Below are positions 8,041 to 46,400 of a stretch of DNA of 64,000 bases, one piece after another. Origin of the DNA: an uncultured Candidatus Saccharibacteria bacterium (GTDB lineage: Bacteria; Patescibacteriota; Saccharimonadia; Saccharimonadales; CAIOMD01); contig CAZMHM010000002.1 in NCBI GenBank assembly GCA_964566135.1, positions 66,309-130,308 on the forward strand. Direction: 5' to 3'. Position 1 is the stretch's first letter. Each line of letters begins with the position of its first letter. The position numbers and the translations under genes are program-made. The notes beneath the pieces were generated by a model, which saw only the letters and a list, made by a program, of their open reading frames with translations, was not told the origin of the DNA and searched no databases.

Positions 8041-8134
8041 CTCTACTAGTATAGATTATTGACTAAATAATAGTAATATGGCACTATAAACATCTGTCCT
8101 TCCCCCTTCCCCAGGCAAGAGAAAGGAACCGGAC

Positions 8135-8587
8135 ATGACAGCTCTGCAGGACGACATCTTCAGGCCTGACCCTCCCACCACGGAGAGCATGGGCAAGTCC
8201 AAGAACAAGGACAAGCCCAAGCGCGTCTGGCCCAAGAGGCTCTTCCAGATCATCGGCATCGCAGCGCTCATCGCAGCGGTCGTCTGGCTGACCACCGGCC
8301 TCATCACCAGCAAGACCGTCACCCTCGAGAAGGCCATCACCAACGCCGGCTTCGAGAACGTCACGATCTACCCCGCTGACACGAGCAAGCAGACGGTTGC
8401 CTCGGCCACCGCGAGCTACGGCAGCTGCCAGCTGCGATTCATCATCGCAACGCAGGAGCTGTCCGGCGGTCAGGGAACCATCGAACGCCTCGCCATCGTG
8501 GAAAGCGACGGCAAGCTCGTGTTCGATGCCACACCCACCGAGCTGAGCAGCATGGAGCGCTACGCTCCGTGCACGGCCAGCAGCTAG
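8135..8587 (+). CDS. hypothetical single-pass membrane protein encoded in high-GC island
   Basis: RBS GAAAGGAA 8 nt upstream of ATG; TM helix LFQIIGIAALIAAVVWLTTGLI; extreme GC3 bias; no recognisable family. Confidence 0.7.
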   Translation: MTALQDDIFRPDPPTTESMGKSKNKDKPKRVWPKRLFQIIGIAALIAAVVWLTTGLITSKTVTLEKAITNAGFENVTIYPADTSKQTVASATASYGSCQLRFIIATQELSGGQGTIERLAIVESDGKLVFDATPTELSSMERYAPCTASS

Positions 8588-8592
8588 CCCGA

Positions 8593-8640
8593 GTACGGGC
8601 CCCGACCATCACTGGTCCGGGGCCCGTACGGGGCTCTTTT
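8593..8640 (+). terminator. GC-rich rho-independent terminator
   Basis: GTACGGGCCCCGACC/GGTCCGGGGCCCGTAC ~15-bp stem followed by CTCTTTTC. Confidence 0.6.
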
Positions 8641-30518: not shown

Positions 30519-30697
30519 CGTCGCCTATTAGCATAAGGGACGAGCGATTATTACTCAAATACAATTATCGTTTCCGCAGGCCACAAGCTTTGTGGACTAT
30601 GGGAACGGGCAGGTGTTATCAACCTGAGATGGGCGGTATTTCCGCCCAAATGCCTCCGCAAGGTAGGCTGCCAAGTTCCTGAAGAGACGTAGCAGGG

Positions 30698-30817
30698 CTA
30701 CTTCTTCTCCATCGCCTTACGAGCAAGCCCGACCGGACAGCTGCAGTAGTGTTCACCACCGAAGCCAGCCAGAAGGACATACTTGCCCGTGTCATTGCAC
30801 TTTCCGCACTTACCCAT
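30698..30817 (-). CDS. candidate 39-aa CxxC...CxC zinc-ribbon-like small protein (not in ORF track)
   Basis: Perfect SD AAGGAGGTG 6 nt upstream of ATG; MGKCGKCNDTGKYVLLAGFGGEHYCSCPVGLARKAMEKK. Confidence 0.35.
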   Translation of the reverse strand: MGKCGKCNDTGKYVLLAGFGGEHYCSCPVGLARKAMEKK

Positions 30818-31054
30818 GCTTTTCACCTCCTTCGAGGTGTAGTAGGAATCTTGCGAAAGAACGTGCAGGTACCCGGAGGAATCTCACCTCCGGGCAGGTC
30901 GCGAGCCGTTTACCACGGCTACAAGCGAACCTGGCGCAATTCGTGCTGTCTCGTCTGGGCGGGGGCTTTGACGAAACACTTGCGCTACCTTTTCGGCAAG
31001 CGATATCAGCAACCAGCATCTTCCCCGATGCTGACTGCAACTTGCCGAGACTTT

Positions 31055-31133
31055 TGGTCGGAGTGATTGGATTTGAACCAATGACCTCTTTGTTACGAGA
31101 ACAAAGCGCGCTACCGAGCTGCGCTACACCCCG
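31055..31133 (-). tRNA. tRNA gene with encoded CCA; anticodon uncertain (TCG/Arg-like if read centrally); anticodon arm non-canonical on manual fold
   Basis: Acceptor CGGGGTG/CACTCCG, U8, D-arm GCGC-AGCTCGGTA-GCGC, T-arm ATTGG-TTCAAAT-CCAAT, A73-CCA; anticodon region CTTTG-TTCTCGTAA-CAAAG (9-nt loop or 6-bp stem). Confidence 0.6.
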
Positions 31134-31244
31134 CTTGGGCTACAAACCCAAGTTGGCGGTGGCCGGTCGCCACCTACTACAACCATCCTTTTGTTCCGCT
31201 CGGGTAAATCCACCGCACGAAACTAGGGAACAACCGGCCACCAG

Positions 31245-31318
31245 TGGCCCCGACAGGATTTGAACCTGCGACCTCTTGGCTCTTCGCCAAGCGCGCTACC
31301 AAGCTGCGCTACGGGGAC
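31245..31318 (-). tRNA. tRNA-like gene (no encoded CCA); anticodon loop CGAAGAG lacks U33 - identity undetermined/possible pseudo-tRNA
   Basis: Acceptor GTCCCCG/CGGGGCC (one T-C mismatch), D-arm identical to neighbour, T-arm GCAGG-TTCAAAT-CCTGT. Confidence 0.5.
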
Positions 31319-31500: not shown

Positions 31501-34011
31501 TTATATGCGTTCGGCGCCAAGTTTTTGATTAGCTACATCAGCAATGGCATCTAGGAGCGCATTAACATCTTCGGCAATAAGCGTACCTGTAAAACTTGCG
31601 ATTTCTAACCGAAAAGTCACGTGTTTTTTTGATACATCTGCATCTTTGTCAGTATAAATATCTAGCGGCGAAAGGGTTGCACGAGAATCTTTTGGTTGTA
31701 AACCTGCAAGTGCCTCGTTAAGCGTCATATTGAGCTCGCTAAACGATATACCCGTATCGACTTTTAAGGAAATATCTTGTGATACTTTTGGAAATTTAGA
31801 TATAGCCGTATACGTGCTCTTTGACGATACTGCGCCGAGCAACGCTGCTGTGTTCAACTCGAAACCAGCACTGTGCTTGGGCAATTTAAGTGTGGTAATC
31901 GCTTTTTGGGTAAACTCGCCAATAACGCCCAGTTTCGTCCCGTCAGGGGCGATAACTACCGCCGAGCGTTTTGCTTCATATGGCGATTCAACGGCATCGG
32001 TAACAGGTGCATAGAGAATTTCGACGTTAAGACTTTTAGCCAGATAGTCGAGGGCATACTTTGCTTTATAAAATGCAGCGCCTGCGTCTTTTTGCACAGC
32101 TTTAGCGCTGGCTGCATATACATATGCAAGCGCTTCGGTTTCTACCGGTACGCCGTCTTGCAAACCATTGCGTAGTGAATGAGCTTTACCAAGTTCAAAC
32201 AATGCAAACTCATCAAACCCAGCTTTTTGATTTGGATGAACTTTTTCAAGCAAACTCGGAGTTATGCTGAGGCGATAAAACTGCAGGCTTGGGCTAAGCG
32301 CATTGCTTAGACTGTATGCATCTTGCGAGTCCTGCCCTACTCTATCGAGCAAATCCTTATGTACAAAGCTATACGTTAAGACTTCGTTTGCGCCACTATT
32401 CTTTAGTGTGTGCCGCACTGTTTTTTTGAGTTCAAGCATTGCGTCTTTGGGAGTGGGTTCTGTTGGGCGTTGTGGCAACGTAAGCGGCAATCGGTCAAAG
32501 CCATAAAGCCGACCAATTTCCTCGACAATATCTTCTGCAATACTGATATCAGTACGCCAAAAGGGTGCAGTCACCTGTAGTTCATCACCATCAACCGAAA
32601 CCGCAAACTCAACATTATTAAGTAACGCGTGCATCTCGCCAATCGGTAAATTAAGGCCAAGACGTGCATTAATAAAGTCAGGCTTGATACGTAACGTTGG
32701 ATTCTGCAGTAGCGCAGCCTTACTATCGATGACTTCACTGGCCTGTTCTGCTTCAGCGAGTTGTGCTAACTGCTCCATGGCATAGGCGAGTACTCTATCG
32801 TTTTGTAGTGGCGATTGCCCTTTATTGAATCGGGTCACAGCATCTGTAAATAAGCCATGCGCCATTGCGGTTCGCCGAATACTGTACATGTCAAAACTGG
32901 CAACTTCTAAAATTACATTGGTAGTTGATTCATCAACTTCGGTATCAGCGCCACCCATAACACCTCCGACACCAATGAGATCATTGCTGCTGGCAATCAT
33001 GATAGCTTCGGCGCGAGGCGTAATTTGCTTACCACTCAAAAGCGTTATCTGCTCGTTATCCCGTGGGTGACGAACAATAATTTCTGCACCATCACCGCTG
33101 CTACGCTTTGCAACTTTATCGTAGTCATAGGCATGTAGTGGCTGAGCAGTCACATACATAACAAAATTAGTCACATCAACAACGTTATTAATCGGGCGAA
33201 TACCAATGCGTGTTAGCGCTGATTGCAACCAATTCGGGCTCGGTTTAATATGCACATTTTTTAGCGCTACCGCCATAAATCGGGGCACAAGTTCTGGAAT
33301 TTCTACAGATATTCGCAAATCTAAATCTGAAGCTTGGGCAAATTCTGGTGTTTCTAAATACCAGCTCGGGCTTATGTAGGCCTGCTGAGTAATGCCGGCA
33401 ATCTCACGTGCAACCCCCAAGACGCCGAAGCAATCCGGACGATGCGTAAACATCTTGTTTTCAACATCAATAACAACGTCATCGAGGCTATAAATACTTA
33501 CGAACGGTTCACCAACTGAAAGCTCTCTACCAGTTTCAGACTCATTAATCTCAAGTAATCCATCGTGATTATCACTTAAGCCAAGTTCGGCAGCACTCGC
33601 TAACATGCCATTACTAATAACGCCACGGAGCTCACGCTTGCCAAGTACAAACGGTTCTGAGGTATTAACGGTTGTAGGTACTGTTGCACCGGGCGGAATC
33701 CAAGCAACAAGTAAGCCTTCTCGAACATTCGGGGCACCACATACTACTTGTACATATCCGTTTTCGTCTCGCTCAACATCCTGCACAACACCGCCATCAT
33801 CGACCTTACATATGTGTAGCGTATCGGCGTTCGGGTGATCAACGCAGCTTGCAACGCGAGCAATAACAATCCCTTCGTACTTTGGCGCCCAATCAACTAC
33901 TTCGTCAACGGCACCAAGTTGTGAGCCAATTTTTTCTACTAATGCTTCTTTACCTATTGCCTTAAGGTCAACATTACTAAAATATTGAGCAGTATTTATG
34001 CTAATTTTCAT
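31501..34011 (-). CDS. pheT: phenylalanine--tRNA ligase beta subunit
   Basis: 836 aa; tRNA-binding N-domain, B3/4, B5, FDX-ACB domains. Confidence 0.95.
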   Translation of the reverse strand: MKISINTAQYFSNVDLKAIGKEALVEKIGSQLGAVDEVVDWAPKYEGIVIARVASCVDHPNADTLHICKVDDGGVVQDVERDENGYVQVVCGAPNVREGLLVAWIPPGATVPTTVNTSEPFVLGKRELRGVISNGMLASAAELGLSDNHDGLLEINESETGRELSVGEPFVSIYSLDDVVIDVENKMFTHRPDCFGVLGVAREIAGITQQAYISPSWYLETPEFAQASDLDLRISVEIPELVPRFMAVALKNVHIKPSPNWLQSALTRIGIRPINNVVDVTNFVMYVTAQPLHAYDYDKVAKRSSGDGAEIIVRHPRDNEQITLLSGKQITPRAEAIMIASSNDLIGVGGVMGGADTEVDESTTNVILEVASFDMYSIRRTAMAHGLFTDAVTRFNKGQSPLQNDRVLAYAMEQLAQLAEAEQASEVIDSKAALLQNPTLRIKPDFINARLGLNLPIGEMHALLNNVEFAVSVDGDELQVTAPFWRTDISIAEDIVEEIGRLYGFDRLPLTLPQRPTEPTPKDAMLELKKTVRHTLKNSGANEVLTYSFVHKDLLDRVGQDSQDAYSLSNALSPSLQFYRLSITPSLLEKVHPNQKAGFDEFALFELGKAHSLRNGLQDGVPVETEALAYVYAASAKAVQKDAGAAFYKAKYALDYLAKSLNVEILYAPVTDAVESPYEAKRSAVVIAPDGTKLGVIGEFTQKAITTLKLPKHSAGFELNTAALLGAVSSKSTYTAISKFPKVSQDISLKVDTGISFSELNMTLNEALAGLQPKDSRATLSPLDIYTDKDADVSKKHVTFRLEIASFTGTLIAEDVNALLDAIADVANQKLGAERI

Positions 34012-35063
34012 TTAAATTGCCTCAAAAATTCTAATTTACCTGACTCGAGATGGCGTATATCTTCGATATCGTTTTTCATCATGACCAAACGATCAATGCC
34101 ACTACCCCAAGCAAAACCGGTATAAACAGTTGGGTCAATACCTGCTTCTTGCAGGACATTTGGGTGAATCATGCCGCATCCAAGGAGCTCAATCCAACCG
34201 CTCTGGCTACAAATGCTACAGCCTGCTTTTTTACAAAATGGACAGCTAAGCGCAAATTCAAAACTTGGTTCGGTAAACGGGAAGTAGTAGGGTTGTGTTT
34301 TTACTTCTAAATCTTGTTGGTAATATTCTTGCAAAAAAGTCTTAAGCGTTGCAATCAGGTTCCCGGCATGAACATCCTTACCAACGTACACGCCTTCAAG
34401 CTGATAAAACGTATGTTCATGGCGAGCATCTAGATCTTCATTTCTAAATACTCGGCCTGGTATAACAACCGCAATCGGCTTTCCCTCTTCTAGACTGGCT
34501 TTATATTTTTGCAAAACACGATTCTGCATAGTGCTGGTATGTGCTGGTGCGATAAACTGCTTGCCATTAGCATCAGTTTGCGTTGTCATAAACGTATCGT
34601 AATCATCTCGCGCCGGATGCCCTTCGGGGAAATTCAAGGTTGCAAACATATGATAATCGTCATCAATCTCTCTCGATTCGACTGCCGTAAAACCCATGCG
34701 GTAAAAGATATCAATAATCGTTTCAAGCTCTGCCATGAGCGGGTGAATTGTACCTTCTTGCACAGGTAATAGCATGTTCCTTGATTCAGGTTTTGAATTT
34801 GTATCAAAAGGAGCAGTTACATCAATAGGAGCTCTGTCATCGCTGGCTATCGTTGCCTGCTCAACCCATGACTCTAGCTCTGATTTAAGAGCGTTTATTT
34901 CGGCGCCAAACAATTTACGTTGCTCAGGCGGGGCGGTTTTAATAGCTGCAAATAAATCTTTAATAACGGGCGAACGTAATATTACCCGCTTGTCGGCTAG
35001 GGTTTCGAACTCTTTTTTAAGTGCTTCGGCCGCATCAGCGACTTGTGGAATTGAATAAGACAT
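34008..35063 (-). CDS. pheS: phenylalanine--tRNA ligase alpha subunit
   Basis: class II aaRS motifs (FRNEDLDARHEHTFYQLEG, GFAWGSGIDRL). Confidence 0.95.
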   Translation of the reverse strand: MSYSIPQVADAAEALKKEFETLADKRVILRSPVIKDLFAAIKTAPPEQRKLFGAEINALKSELESWVEQATIASDDRAPIDVTAPFDTNSKPESRNMLLPVQEGTIHPLMAELETIIDIFYRMGFTAVESREIDDDYHMFATLNFPEGHPARDDYDTFMTTQTDANGKQFIAPAHTSTMQNRVLQKYKASLEEGKPIAVVIPGRVFRNEDLDARHEHTFYQLEGVYVGKDVHAGNLIATLKTFLQEYYQQDLEVKTQPYYFPFTEPSFEFALSCPFCKKAGCSICSQSGWIELLGCGMIHPNVLQEAGIDPTVYTGFAWGSGIDRLVMMKNDIEDIRHLESGKLEFLRQFK

Positions 35064-35246
35064 ACTTAAGTAAATATTATACGGCTATTTTACCCCTGAC
35101 GCTACCTCTTGACGTATTACTTACATAGTTGTATTGTTTTTTTATCTTTTGGCACCAGCCAAGGGAGCGACCCAAGGGGGGTGGTACCTATCATACGGAA
35201 GCTTGTGCGCTCGTTCTTGCACTACTCCGAAAGGAACGAGCCCGAA

Positions 35247-35579
35247 GTGTCTGTTCTCGGCAAGCTCGAAATCACCGTGCCGAAGCTGGACATGTACGTT
35301 GCCGTACGGCAGCACGGCGGCGAATGCTGTAGCGATAATTGCGAGTCCGCGCTGGGCCACCTCACAGGGGAACCCCAATACGATTCGCAACACGAAAGCA
35401 TCTTCGTCGTCGTCACACCGCTTAGCGAACAGCAGGTTGCTAAGCGCGTCGTTCTCGCAAAACGCTCCAAGTGGGGCATCTGGCGCGCGACTGGCAAGCA
35501 AATCGGCACTACCAAGAAGAAGATCCCCGTGCAACGCGAGGCAGTCGAGGTCGAAAGCCAAGAGCTTTCGACCAACTGA
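35247..35579 (+). CDS. candidate small protein (about 110 aa) in second high-GC island; GTG start
   Basis: GC3 ~72% vs GC1 ~64%; AAAGGAA SD ~10 nt upstream of GTG; strand assignment uncertain because antisense frame is also open. Confidence 0.35.
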   Translation: MSVLGKLEITVPKLDMYVAVRQHGGECCSDNCESALGHLTGEPQYDSQHESIFVVVTPLSEQQVAKRVVLAKRSKWGIWRATGKQIGTTKKKIPVQREAVEVESQELSTN

Positions 35580-35697
35580 TGAGGACAAGGGGGAGCGGCG
35601 TACAAGAGAGTACGCTGCCCCAAAAGCAGTGGTTTCAAATGAAACCGCTCCCCCAAGCCCACCACCCCCTATACACAACGCATGATAGACTATTGGT

Positions 35698-36195
35698 ATG
35701 GCAGTATTTTCATTCGACATAGTTTCAGATTACGACAAAAGTGAACTCAACAACGTTGTTGACCAGGCGCAACGCGAAATAGCGAATCGTTATGATCTAA
35801 AAGGCACAAAAGCCGCACTAGACTGGCTCGACGGCGACAAGAATGCGCTTAAAATTACCGGTGATAATGATTTTCATATCGACGCTATCCTAGATATTGT
35901 CAGAAAAAAGCTAGCAACTCGTGGCCAAAGCCAAAAAACGCTCGATACGTCAAAAGAGGCTACTACCACGAATCTTCAAACTGTCAAAATCGTACCACTC
36001 AAAAAGGGGCTTGACCAAGAAAAAGCAAAAAAAATAACTTCGCTGATTAGAGAACAATTGCCAAAAGTTAAGACACAAATCCAAGGTGACGAAGTACGCG
36101 TGATGAGCCCCAAGAAAGACGACTTACAGGCTGTCATGACCTTACTCAAAAGCCAAGATTTTGACTTCCCTCTCGACTTTACGAATTACCGATAA
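35698..36195 (+). CDS. yajQ: YajQ-family (DUF520) nucleotide-binding protein
   Basis: MAVFSFDIVSDYDKSELNNVVDQAQREIANRYDLKG matches YajQ N-terminus. Confidence 0.85.
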   Translation: MAVFSFDIVSDYDKSELNNVVDQAQREIANRYDLKGTKAALDWLDGDKNALKITGDNDFHIDAILDIVRKKLATRGQSQKTLDTSKEATTTNLQTVKIVPLKKGLDQEKAKKITSLIREQLPKVKTQIQGDEVRVMSPKKDDLQAVMTLLKSQDFDFPLDFTNYR

Positions 36196-36228
36196 ATAAT
36201 TATCAAAGTTCCGTATACTTATAAGCAT

Positions 36229-37539
36229 ATGGATATTCTTTCTGAGCAGTGCGAATCAGTTCTTCGTGCTAATGACCGCGGCACATACACCGTTCCATCG
36301 CCAAGCTTGTACCCTCACCAATGGTTGTGGGATAGCTCATTTTCTGCAATTGGTTGGGCGCATCTTGATACCGCTCGGGCCGAACAAGAAATTCTGAGTC
36401 TACTGCACGCCCAGTGGAGTAATGGCATGATTCCGCATATGATTTTTAATATGTCGCCAAAATATGCACAAGACCGTGGTGCATGGCGAAGCTGGGTTGC
36501 AGCCCAGTCACCGAGCGACGTTGCAACAAGCGGCATAACACAACCTCCTGTTATCGCCGAGGCTGTTGTACGTATTGGTGCACAGCTCAACAAACCTGCT
36601 CGCCAGCAGTTTTATAAAAAAGTGCTGCCCAAACTTATTAAATATCATGAATGGTTATATACCGAACGTGACCCCCATAAAGAGGGTCTGGTGCTACAGG
36701 TTCATCCGTATGAAACGGGGTTTGATAATACACCTCCATGGATGAATCAGCTGCGTGAGCACAGCCGACCATGGTGGATAGCGGCAATCGAAAAACTACA
36801 TCTTGATGCAATCATTAACGTAGCGCGTCGTGACACACGTTCACTTCCCGCCGAGCAACGTATGAAAAATATTGACGCGCTGGTTATATGGGATGTCATT
36901 CGCCGCTTACGTCGTAAACACTATGATATTGATAAAATTCTGCACCGTTCATTGTTTGTCATCGAAGATGTTGCATTTAATAGTATATTCATACGCAATA
37001 ACACCCTCCTGCGTGAGATTGCCGACGAAGCACGTATTAAACTTCCAGAGGAACTCATCGCAAATATGCAGCGTAGCGAGCAAGCACTTGAAGATTTATG
37101 GGATGAGCAGTTCAATATGTATTTTAGTCGTGATTTTATTTCTAATCATTTATTACGCGAGCCCACCATTGCAGGCCTCATGCCGCTATATGCTGGCACC
37201 ATACGTAAAGAACGTGCCGACAAATTAGTAAAAATTCTATTAAACGACCACGTGTACTGGCTCAATCATCCAATCCCTTCGGTGCCACGAAATGTGCGAG
37301 GTTTCGATCAAAACCGTTATTGGCAGGGGCCAACCTGGATTAATACCAACTGGATGATTATCGACGGACTCAAGCGTATGGGCTACAGTAACGAGGCCAA
37401 TGCGCTCAAGAGCCATACCATCGAACTAATGCGCGAACACGGGATATGGGAATATTACAATCCAATGACAGGCCAGGGCCTGGGAAGTGCCGACTTTAGC
37501 TGGAGCGCCGCGCTGGCGTTAGATTTACTTAACGCATAA
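36229..37539 (+). CDS. six-hairpin glycoside hydrolase (GH63-like; mannosyl-/glucosylglycerate hydrolase family)
   Basis: HQWLWDSSFSAIGW and EYYNPMTGQGLGS motifs typical of GH63/MGH enzymes. Confidence 0.65.
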   Translation: MDILSEQCESVLRANDRGTYTVPSPSLYPHQWLWDSSFSAIGWAHLDTARAEQEILSLLHAQWSNGMIPHMIFNMSPKYAQDRGAWRSWVAAQSPSDVATSGITQPPVIAEAVVRIGAQLNKPARQQFYKKVLPKLIKYHEWLYTERDPHKEGLVLQVHPYETGFDNTPPWMNQLREHSRPWWIAAIEKLHLDAIINVARRDTRSLPAEQRMKNIDALVIWDVIRRLRRKHYDIDKILHRSLFVIEDVAFNSIFIRNNTLLREIADEARIKLPEELIANMQRSEQALEDLWDEQFNMYFSRDFISNHLLREPTIAGLMPLYAGTIRKERADKLVKILLNDHVYWLNHPIPSVPRNVRGFDQNRYWQGPTWINTNWMIIDGLKRMGYSNEANALKSHTIELMREHGIWEYYNPMTGQGLGSADFSWSAALALDLLNA

Positions 37540-40868: not shown

Positions 40869-42170
40869 TTACTTGTGTTTTGCTACTCTGCAGAATGATG
40901 CAATCACTTCAAGGGAAAGCACTGCGATGCCACTAGTGATTAAAGCGGTGATGACCCCGCTCGTTGTTGGAGGAATGCGAAGTGCAAATGCAGCATATGC
41001 AACCCCAGTAAGCGTCCAGGCAATCACTACTCTATTGTGGGCAACCCAAACTAGCCATTTTGGAGCCACTAGCCGTGAGGCAAACTTTCCGAAGATCCAA
41101 TCGAGCCCTTGGCGCATTTTGGTTCGCAGCCATACTATCCATGATTCACCCGAAGTTATCAGTATAACTCCAAGGACAGATGCAAATAATAGTGCGAAGC
41201 CTTGGGTTTGCTCAACAAGGCCAATCGAAATAATACGATATACAGCAGAACCTGCAGCCGCATATTGACCCGCCTCAAGGACGCTATTTACCTGTGTTGC
41301 CCCAATGCGAACCGCTAAGAGCGTTGCGAACATAAACAACAAGCTGAAACTAAGAAGGCCGATTACCATACTCCCTCGACGCTTGCTCAGGCCAATTGCA
41401 AGCAATGTAAATACGACTGATGCGATTGCAAGTTCTTTGGTTACCTTATCGAGAACATTCAATGCTTGTCTTGCTTTTGGTAGCCAGGTTATTTCTTTAA
41501 CCGTAATTGACCCTACTGAACTAGGCAGGTTCTTCCCAAACAGGAAGCCAATTTGGCTATCTTTTAATTTATCACCGACAGTAGTGTAGATTTCATCAAC
41601 ACTAATCTTGCCATCATTGTTTGGATTCTGAATATATGCAATAAGTTTTTCGTGAGTAGTGCTTAATACCGATGTCCATATCTCAGCAACTTGGGGGGTT
41701 TGGAGAACTTCGCCAATCTTATCAGTAGTGAAGCTCTTTACTTGGCCCGCAAATGGTGCCGCAATAAAATCAAGATTCTCTGGTAATACTTTTTCTAGTT
41801 CAGCCTGGACATCAATCCTACTGAAGATTTCATTAGAAATTTCTGTCTTCAGTGCGTTCTGCACATCTGGATCTTTAATAACTGGAGAGACAGCCGCAAC
41901 AAATTTATCATTATCAACAATGGTTTGTTGTGCCCAATACGAAACGTTAAACAACATAAACGCAACAATCGCTATAACTGCGCTGAGTCCTGCAAAGAAT
42001 GAGCGCCAAAAACTACGCTTTTTTACGACCGATTCTTTTTTCGTCTTTAAAATTGCAACTTCTTGTTTCAAAAGATCGTTCTCCTGCTTAAGAAGCGCCA
42101 ACTCCTTTGCGGAGTTCTTACTTGTTGCGCTAGATGATTTACCTGCTTTGTTCTGTGCACTACGGGCCAT
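40869..42170 (-). CDS. hypothetical membrane protein with N-terminal coiled-coil and C-terminal polytopic domain
   Basis: LALLKQENDLLKQEVAILK heptads; >=6 TM segments. Confidence 0.7.
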   Translation of the reverse strand: MARSAQNKAGKSSSATSKNSAKELALLKQENDLLKQEVAILKTKKESVVKKRSFWRSFFAGLSAVIAIVAFMLFNVSYWAQQTIVDNDKFVAAVSPVIKDPDVQNALKTEISNEIFSRIDVQAELEKVLPENLDFIAAPFAGQVKSFTTDKIGEVLQTPQVAEIWTSVLSTTHEKLIAYIQNPNNDGKISVDEIYTTVGDKLKDSQIGFLFGKNLPSSVGSITVKEITWLPKARQALNVLDKVTKELAIASVVFTLLAIGLSKRRGSMVIGLLSFSLLFMFATLLAVRIGATQVNSVLEAGQYAAAGSAVYRIISIGLVEQTQGFALLFASVLGVILITSGESWIVWLRTKMRQGLDWIFGKFASRLVAPKWLVWVAHNRVVIAWTLTGVAYAAFALRIPPTTSGVITALITSGIAVLSLEVIASFCRVAKHK

Positions 42171-46269: not shown

Positions 46270-46400
46270 AAGGATGAAACATATATCTTTCCGCATACGC
46301 GGACTAGATGGGGCACCGTTCCGATTAAGGGGTGGTTGCCGGCGGGTCATAGAGCTAGTTCTCTCACCGCACTCACGATATCAAATTGTTAACTGCTAAA
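46270..46400 (-). promoter_or_regulatory. candidate SAM riboswitch (SAM-I/IV clan) in metK leader
   Basis: Minus-strand leader contains GCCGGCAACC...GGUGCCCC core resembling SAM-I/IV; about 200-nt 5' UTR. Confidence 0.4.

Follow-up and report, generated by a model that had tools for sequence, protein, structure and literature searches.

We analysed a stretch of 64,000 nucleotides (nt) from an uncultured Candidatus Saccharibacteria bacterium (GenBank assembly GCA_964566135.1, contig CAZMHM010000002.1, positions 66,309 to 130,308 of the forward strand), hereafter the window, and focused on a small island rich in guanine and cytosine (GC) that lies between the genes pheS and yajQ. We consider it probable that this island is a vertically inherited, clade-specific cassette whose messenger RNA (mRNA) represses its own translation by pairing its 5' region with its 3' region. 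The mechanism itself is known; what is new at this locus is that it has compensatory support in five species and that it comes with a near-invariant 3' junction. An earlier sequence-only reading of the window had noticed the island, its small gene, and an RNA element of four stems. Its observation is confirmed and its interpretation partly supported, but it missed the main feature, namely that the junction stands beside one strand of a long-range helix spanning about 480 nt over the ribosome-binding site. The parts of the cassette are the following.

35109 to 35137, plus strand: promoter-like site of the cassette, TTGACG-17 nt-TATTGT, from a consensus scan
35146 to 35165, plus strand: 5' terminal hairpin, CUUUUGGC-ACCA-GCCAAGGG, of 8 base pairs (bp) including two U.G pairs
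35176 to 35185, plus strand: 5' strand of the long-range helix, GGGGGGUGGU, which is Shine-Dalgarno (SD)-like and contains the conserved GTG at 35181-35183
35181 to 35579, plus strand: protein-coding open reading frame (ORF) of 132 amino acids plus stop, starting at GTG 35181 or at the in-frame ATC 35190
35583 to 35586, plus strand: 5' strand of helix P0, just outside the junction, pairing with 35657-35660
35589 to 35654, plus strand: junction of 66 nt in the 3' untranslated region (UTR), made of a closing helix and three arms
35657 to 35660, plus strand: 3' strand of helix P0, pairing with 35583-35586
35661 to 35670, plus strand: 3' strand of the long-range helix, ACCACCCCCU, pyrimidine-rich and anti-SD-like, pairing with 35176-35185

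Database searches show the gene to be an orphan confined to a narrow clade within Candidatus Saccharimonadales (Saccharibacteria, TM7). A profile search with HMMER against 1.84 billion representative proteins returned P0001 as its only match, a search of 5.8 billion clusters with a profile of four sequences returned only P0001, P0002, and P0003, and tblastn searches of phage and plasmid collections with the ORF protein gave zero matches. The sequence-only reading had suggested looking for foreign homologues, and none was found outside the clade in these representative proteins, phages, and plasmids. P0001, which is found on loci L001 and L002, has 59% amino acid identity with the protein of the window and occupies the same position between pheS and yajQ. 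A DNA pattern of the junction had one match in metagenome contigs (L086) and none in viral contigs, and L092 was found via P0003. The homologues of the ORF are these three proteins and the ORF of L086, and the cassette is represented by five species-level variants: the window, L001, L006 (identical to L087-L091), L086, and L092. All five belong to Candidatus Saccharimonadales, lie between pheS and yajQ, and have a common layout, with a promoter and 5' terminal hairpin, an SD-like strand, the ORF, a junction of 64-68 nt, and a pyrimidine-rich anti-SD strand. The third codon positions of yajQ are 45-52% identical in all pairs of variants, which corresponds to saturation. Vertical inheritance is the best reading of the history of the cassette. 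As comparison loci we used 79 other yajQ loci from species-representative genomes, in 49 of which both pheS and yajQ were found. The strain of the window itself is present in the runs SRR13208889, ERZ28614234, and ERZ15185475.

The evidence that carries our interpretation is the long-range helix. Its strands pair in the predicted fold of the whole island and in cofolding, and they are complementary over 9-15 bp in each of the five species. The start codon lies within the 5' strand or directly adjoins it, and in three relatives this strand reads GAGGUG. The strands of the five variants are listed below.

Window: 5' strand GGGGGGUGGU, 3' strand ACCACCCCCU
L001: 5' strand AGGGGGGUGGUA, 3' strand UACCACCCCCUU
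L006: 5' strand AGAAGAGGUGAU, 3' strand AUCACCUCUUCU
L086: 5' strand CAGAAAGAGGUGGUC, 3' strand GACCACCUCUUUCUG
L092: 5' strand AGAAAGAGG, 3' strand CCUCUUUCU

In every species the duplex is better than those obtained with shuffled tails (fraction as good 0.000-0.016). When the five variants are aligned, 84% of the helix cells are paired, versus 45-65% after a shift of the partner strand by 1-3 columns. Of the 15 pairs, seven are altered on both sides, and the covariation score was reached by 0 of 500 shuffles. This comparison shows that the long-range pairing is maintained by selection, with compensatory changes across the five species. Helix P0, which lies between the long-range helix and the junction and is recovered by cofolding in all five, also covaries, from GCGG/CCGC in L001 and L006 to GGUG/CACC in L086. 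The 5' terminal hairpin has 100% of its cells paired in the five species, with a variable loop (ACCA, AGCC, GGTT, or GTCT) and two one-sided changes that preserve pairing (U.G to U-A and C-G to U.G). Its reading frame differs between L006 and the window, which indicates that the hairpin is untranslated. Since the long-range helix and the 5' hairpin both contain G.U pairs, they can be formed by the plus-strand RNA only, which argues against inverted repeats acting at the level of DNA.

The junction adjoining this helix is of a different nature. In its closing helix, GGGGGAGCGG (35589-35598) is perfectly complementary to CCGCTCCCCC (35645-35654), and the helix encloses arm 1 (CGUAC/GUACG, loop AAGAGA), arm 2 or linker (CUGC-CCCAAAA-GCAG), and arm 3 (GGUUUC/GAAACC, loop AAAU). 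The 91-nt stretch folds at -38.8 kcal/mol, versus -22.3 +/- 2.5 for dinucleotide shuffles (z = -6.5, 0 of 200 as good). The 10-bp helix and enclosed hairpins described by the sequence-only reading are thus real. Its four-way fold holds in part: the fold of minimum energy is three-way, at -35.5 kcal/mol, and the four-way form, at -33.0, is only 2.5 kcal/mol worse. Arm 2 of L092, where CUGC..GCAG is replaced by CUGU..ACAG, a compensatory change from C-G to U-A, favours the middle hairpin of the four-way form. The same reading had proposed a comparison of the pheS-yajQ spacer in relatives, and among the five variants the junction is near-invariant while the ORF diverges. Pairwise identity of the junction is 90-97%, and all differences but one fall in arm 2 or the linker; the sole exception is a C-to-U change in arm 1 that gives a G.U pair. 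Because the stems of the junction never vary, they are uninformative on pairing itself; what they indicate is that the sequence is constrained, for instance by recognition through a factor or by having to be compatible with several folds.

The junction could not be assigned to a known class of RNA. A covariance model found it as a single copy in the window and had no hit in the 79 related yajQ loci. The Rfam search that had been suggested as a check returned no family of Rfam 15 at the gathering score, whether riboswitch, ribozyme, tRNA-like RNA, Y RNA, or any other, and the matches with expect values (E) up to 10 were noise (mir-1224, RT-17, histone stem-loop). ARAGORN reported no tRNA or tmRNA in the island. 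A scan of 34900-36300 found no terminator-like site on the plus strand, and the sequence that follows the junction, CCCCCAAGCCCACC, has no U-run, so the junction is not a standard intrinsic (Rho-independent) terminator. The earlier view that the element is more than a terminator is in line with this and with the strong selection on its structure. A hammerhead ribozyme was considered and rejected, since the candidate motif CUGAUGAG (35575-35582) overlaps the stop codon and is not kept in L006 (AGTTGAGCGG). As a side observation made by eye only, the invariant loop AAGAGA of arm 1 (35604-35609) is complementary to the invariant 5'-terminal UCUUUU (35145-35150), the 5' arm of the 5' hairpin, and might make a second 5'-3' contact.

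The strand of the gene, left uncertain by the sequence-only reading, can be assigned from the relatives. The plus strand is the coding one, because only its frame is open in L001, the ratio of nonsynonymous to synonymous substitution rates (dN/dS) is about 0.2, and third-position changes dominate. For comparison, dN/dS is 0.09 for the N-terminal part of pheS. Between the window and L001 there are 29, 35, and 59 differences at codon positions 1, 2, and 3, respectively, and indels are in frame. The antisense ORF (192 amino acids) is indeed open in the window, as had been noted, but in this genome only; it is interrupted by stops in L001 and was rejected. The GC bias that had drawn attention to the frame was also confirmed: GC at codon positions 1, 2, and 3 is 0.62, 0.41, and 0.71 for 35247 to 35579, and the last value (GC3) matches the earlier estimate of about 72%. 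The start proposed with it, GTG 35247 preceded by the SD sequence AAAGGAA, was discarded because this codon is GAC in L001. The conserved frame reaches back to GTG 35181, the only in-frame start codon kept among relatives. Nine nt past it lies the in-frame ATC 35190, which reads ATT in L086 and L092 and has an ideal spacing from the SD-like core. AAGGGAG (35161-35167) is unlikely to be the SD sequence of GTG 35181, as its spacing ranges from 13 to 21 nt across species. We also observed that a 12-nt string of the 5' UTR, CAAGGGAGCGAC (35161-35172), recurs directly upstream of the ATG of another gene, on the minus strand (gcaagggagcgacaaATG; plus-strand positions ~42150-42170), probably by chance or through SD similarity.

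The protein has 131-139 amino acids in the five variants and evolves fast, with identities of 24-57% among them at the amino acid level and 31-65% at the nucleotide level. ORFs of both strands failed to match any Pfam or PHROG family. An AlphaFold2 model (predicted local distance difference test, pLDDT, 70.8; predicted template modelling score, pTM, 0.60) places a helix at the N terminus and has a beta-rich core; no significant fold match was obtained for it in the PDB or among viral structures. Residues R18, H45, C54, Y67, P80, R95, and W101 are invariant, and there is a conserved H-x3-4-C-x3-4-C motif. An N-terminal transmembrane helix is present in the proteins of L086 and L092, and not in those of the window, L001, and L006.

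The composition of the island was the reason for suspecting a foreign origin, and the existence of a discrete GC-rich unit between two native genes is clear: GC content is 57.7% in 35150-35690 versus 44.3% across the window. It peaks at 0.58-0.605 between 35200 and 35600 (in windows of 200 nt), with ~0.42-0.45 on either side, and self-BLAST of the island against the window revealed no related island. GC3 of the ORF is 0.53-0.71 in the five species, versus 0.29-0.42 for yajQ, an excess of 0.2-0.3 in each. The predicted folding of the mRNA is also in excess: relative to dinucleotide shuffles, the whole transcript has z from -6.6 to -10 in the five species, and the interior of the coding sequence alone has z from -2.8 to -5.6 in all five, with yajQ and pheS at about -0.2. 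Given the GC excess in all five species and the strong mRNA folding, a recent import is not needed as an explanation. Moreover, the persistence of this excess through saturated divergence, together with the excess folding, fits selection for structure better than an import that has not yet been ameliorated. A recent transfer from a high-GC donor is also at odds with the searches, which found no donor homologue, and with a GC excess that is not limited to one lineage. Selection for dense folding of the mRNA can account for the high GC irrespective of where the gene first came from, and an ancient foreign origin is possible.

We propose that transcription from the cassette promoter would give an mRNA that begins with a protective terminal hairpin. 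This putative promoter is a consensus match only; its -35 TTG and -10 TAT(T/C)GT are retained in all five species. Once the full mRNA has been made, the 3' anti-SD strand would pair with the SD and start region, and the molecule would close on itself. Initiation by ribosomes would be blocked in the closed mRNA, and the SD/anti-SD duplex could also serve as a substrate for a double-strand ribonuclease (RNase). The gene would hence be kept translationally quiet, or be limited to a short burst of translation during transcription. The junction and P0 would stack on the long-range helix. The most likely role of the junction is that of a stiff element at the 3' end, which would hold the anti-SD strand in position and stop 3' exonucleases. 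Repression may also be lifted at this site, either by a factor or through 3' trimming. Scaffold, exonuclease block, and switch are all conceivable roles for it.

A comparable arrangement is known in the icaR mRNA of Staphylococcus aureus, where UCCCCUG in the 3' UTR pairs with the gene's own SD sequence, UAGGGGG, blocks initiation, and creates a site for RNase III (PMC3868564). As in icaR, a pyrimidine-rich anti-SD sequence of the 3' UTR pairs with its own SD region hundreds of nt upstream, here ACCACCCCCU with GGGGGGUGGU. The helix differs from that of icaR in its greater length (9-15 bp) and in the compensatory changes seen in five species. The distance from the stop codon to the anti-SD strand, which comes right after a near-invariant junction, is ~80 nt (260 nt in icaR), and the host belongs to the candidate phyla radiation, where the system is known from sequence alone. 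In Bacillus subtilis, anti-SD-like 8-mers located hundreds of nt downstream base-pair in vivo with the ribosome-binding site, so that decay is promoted and translation blocked, and anti-SD-like sequences are normally selected against in native genes (PMC12697547). A 5'/3'-UTR interaction has also been described for hbs (PMC5737220). Our cassette shares with these cases an anti-SD-like sequence placed far downstream of the ribosome-binding site, and they establish that such a mechanism works in vivo over several hundred nt (PMC12697547, PMC5737220). The difference is that the anti-SD-like sequence is here selected for, and coevolves with the SD sequence.

Two further systems invite comparison. 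Plant RNA viruses carry 3' cap-independent translation elements, which attract translation factors or ribosomal subunits and thereby enhance translation. These elements resemble the cassette, by analogy only, in having a branched 3'-UTR structure beside a long-distance 5'-3' pairing that controls translation of the same RNA; they belong to eukaryotic viruses, show no homology to it, and the effect expected here is the opposite. In the mRNAs of type I toxins, such as hok/sok and aapA/isoA, fold-back of the 3' end onto the 5' region inhibits translation, and the full-length mRNA is closed by its extreme 3' end. These toxins are small hydrophobic peptides, usually of fewer than 60 amino acids, and their antitoxin is a cis-encoded antisense RNA. 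The cassette is like the hok and aapA mRNAs in that its 3' end pairs with the translation-initiation region of a highly structured mRNA, an arrangement that suggests activation by 3' trimming. It differs from them in having a product of ~132 amino acids with a folded domain instead of a short hydrophobic peptide and in having no sequence or Rfam similarity; a consensus promoter scan gave no sign of an antisense RNA gene.

The latter resemblance raises the question of whether the cassette is a type I toxin-like module, in which the mRNA would be inert by 5'-3' pairing and slow 3' trimming to the junction would free a harmful membrane-associated protein, itself neutralised by a yet-unfound antisense RNA. 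Such a module would be consistent with the extreme 3' end masking the ribosome-binding site, with a very stable structure just upstream of the anti-SD strand that could halt a 3' exonuclease, and with the unusual degree of structure of the whole mRNA, as well as with the N-terminal transmembrane helix of L086 and L092 and with the fact that a lone small orphan gene, evolving fast, occupies a variable slot. Yet we regard it as unlikely, since the proteins, of 131-139 amino acids with a folded beta-rich domain, are far from the usual size, three of the five variants lack the transmembrane helix, and the dN/dS of ~0.2, taken with the conservation of H, C, R, W, and Y residues, points to a structured domain. 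The consensus scan also gave no promoter-like site on the minus strand, although little can be concluded from a lack of consensus matches, and relatives do not retain the -10-like hexamer that was noticed by eye on that strand, opposite the start region. It is also doubtful that the junction is the functional product, i.e., a small structured RNA processed from the 3' UTR that would act in trans or bind a conserved cellular factor, with the ORF and the long-range helix as a secondary, processing or insulating, context. What speaks for it is that the junction is invariant outside arm 2 in five species amid diverging surroundings, with sharp boundaries of conservation, that invariant stems suggest sequence-specific recognition or several folding states more than plain pairing, and that the three-way and four-way conformers are close in energy. 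Nevertheless, it has neither an Rfam match nor a tRNA-like call, and neither the window nor the 79 related loci contain a further copy or variant. It always accompanies one ORF and is absent from all other Saccharimonadales that were examined, an unexpected pattern for an RNA of general cellular function, and the covariation of the adjacent P0 and SD/anti-SD helices ties it physically to the fold of the mRNA.

The idea that the island is mobile or horizontally acquired DNA, with its ends as terminal inverted repeats and the junction as a recombination or attachment site, derives from the sequence-only reading, which had suggested an integration scar or an attachment site. Its GC and GC3 are well above those of host genes, the pheS-yajQ spacer is a variable slot with different genes in different species, and inverted repeats bracket the unit. 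We nonetheless find this explanation highly improbable. The G.U pairs of the plus strand in the long-range helix and the 5' hairpin would be A.C mismatches in a DNA stem of the other strand, and the repeats do not enclose the promoter and the 5' hairpin. Only one copy of the unit occurs in the window, with neither an integrase nor a transposase next to it, and the searches gave no homologue in other taxa, phages, or plasmids. Its presence in one fixed slot in five species whose synonymous divergence is saturated fits vertical descent, and the GC excess persists in all five lineages and accompanies the excess folding. The examination for an attachment site came out negative; for the integron attC core sites (GTTRRRY) it consisted of inspection by eye only.

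Several points weigh against the self-repression of the mRNA that we favour. The promoter, the transcript ends, and the transcribed strand are all read off the sequence. No terminator was found after the anti-SD strand, and the transcript may run into yajQ or end elsewhere. The two strands are termed SD-like and anti-SD-like by resemblance rather than by comparison with the 3' end of the host 16S rRNA. The register of the helix was set by hand on the invariant GGUG/CACC cores, which leans towards structure, and the comparison comprises only five sequences that are mutually related. In L092, the helix covers the SD sequence and not the GTG. The start codon is uncertain, because no spacer separates GTG 35181 from the SD-like core, and the codon at a suitable distance is a non-canonical AUC or AUU. 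Finally, the invariance of the junction would not be explained by a purely structural or roadblock role, in which case its stems should covary like the SD helix. A different weight is given to the junction if, together with the anti-SD strand, it forms a new bacterial 3'-UTR regulatory module, a sensor or switch in which binding of a conserved factor or ligand, or a toggle between the three-way and four-way forms, would govern closure of the 3' end onto the ribosome-binding site. We give this version only a small chance; if true, a bacterial mRNA would have its translation governed from the 3' end, through regulated cyclisation.

The flanking genes set the limits of the cassette.

34008 to 35063, minus strand: pheS, the left flank of the island
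35686 to 35691, plus strand: -10 box of yajQ, TAGACT, 6 nt upstream of the yajQ ATG, the right-hand limit of the cassette and outside it
35698 to 36195, plus strand: DUF520/YajQ gene (yajQ; Pfam E 1e-53), the right flank

A gene for an MGH1-like glycoside hydrolase lies downstream of yajQ. The placement of the yajQ -10 box is the same in all five species and in relatives with spacers of 21-42 bp. Short pheS-yajQ spacers have back-to-back -10 boxes, 6-7 nt from each ATG, which gives both genes a leaderless appearance, and it is precisely between these two boxes that the cassette is placed. Many genes of the window have a -10-like box (TATACT, TACAAT, TATAAT, or TAGACT) 6-9 nt before the ATG and no SD sequence (e.g., 35686-35700, 35061-35081, and 36204-36231), which suggests that leaderless mRNAs, including those of yajQ and pheS, are widespread in this genome. 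Among the 49 comparison loci with both genes, the spacer is 21-123 bp in 17 species and unrelated genes occupy it in the rest. Across Saccharimonadales (loci L007-L069), the spacer is a variable slot, with unrelated small plus-strand ORFs or larger genes elsewhere, and one gene family in it is common to L016, L034, and L038. Locus L008 has a left-hand promoter module in common with the cassette of the window, with a different and unrelated ORF. It was rejected as an instance of the same design, given this ORF and a duplex no better than shuffles (p = 0.10).

Other elements of the window were observed in passing. A first high-GC island, at 8090-8640, carries an ORF at 8135 to 8587 on the plus strand, with a GC3 of 0.89 and a predicted membrane helix, followed by a classic terminator with a hairpin and a run of U at ~8589-8635. 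It is a different orphan gene from that of the 35-kb island, with four metagenomic relatives only. A pyrimidine run, CCTTCCCCCTTCCCC, lies directly upstream of its SD sequence and could be a local anti-SD. A third GC-rich stretch, at 30600-31050, adjoins tRNA-Arg(tcg) at 31055-31133 and tRNA-Leu(aag) at 31244-31318; its only Rfam matches are tRNAs, and a putative small Cys-rich ORF (MGKCGKCNDTGKYVLL...) was seen by eye on the minus strand at ~30700-30820. A SAM (S-adenosylmethionine) riboswitch of the S box type was identified on the minus strand at 46280-46384, with 52.2 bits, above the gathering score.

These results have implications beyond this locus. A GC island that looks foreign can instead reflect selection for mRNA structure. 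The interaction between the 5' and 3' regions appears to be selected for and coevolves over ~480 nt in five species of an uncultivated lineage of the candidate phyla radiation, and it is coupled to a near-invariant RNA junction that belongs to no known family. The cassette thus offers a phylogenetically supported example of self-pairing in an mRNA, and one that is easily testable.

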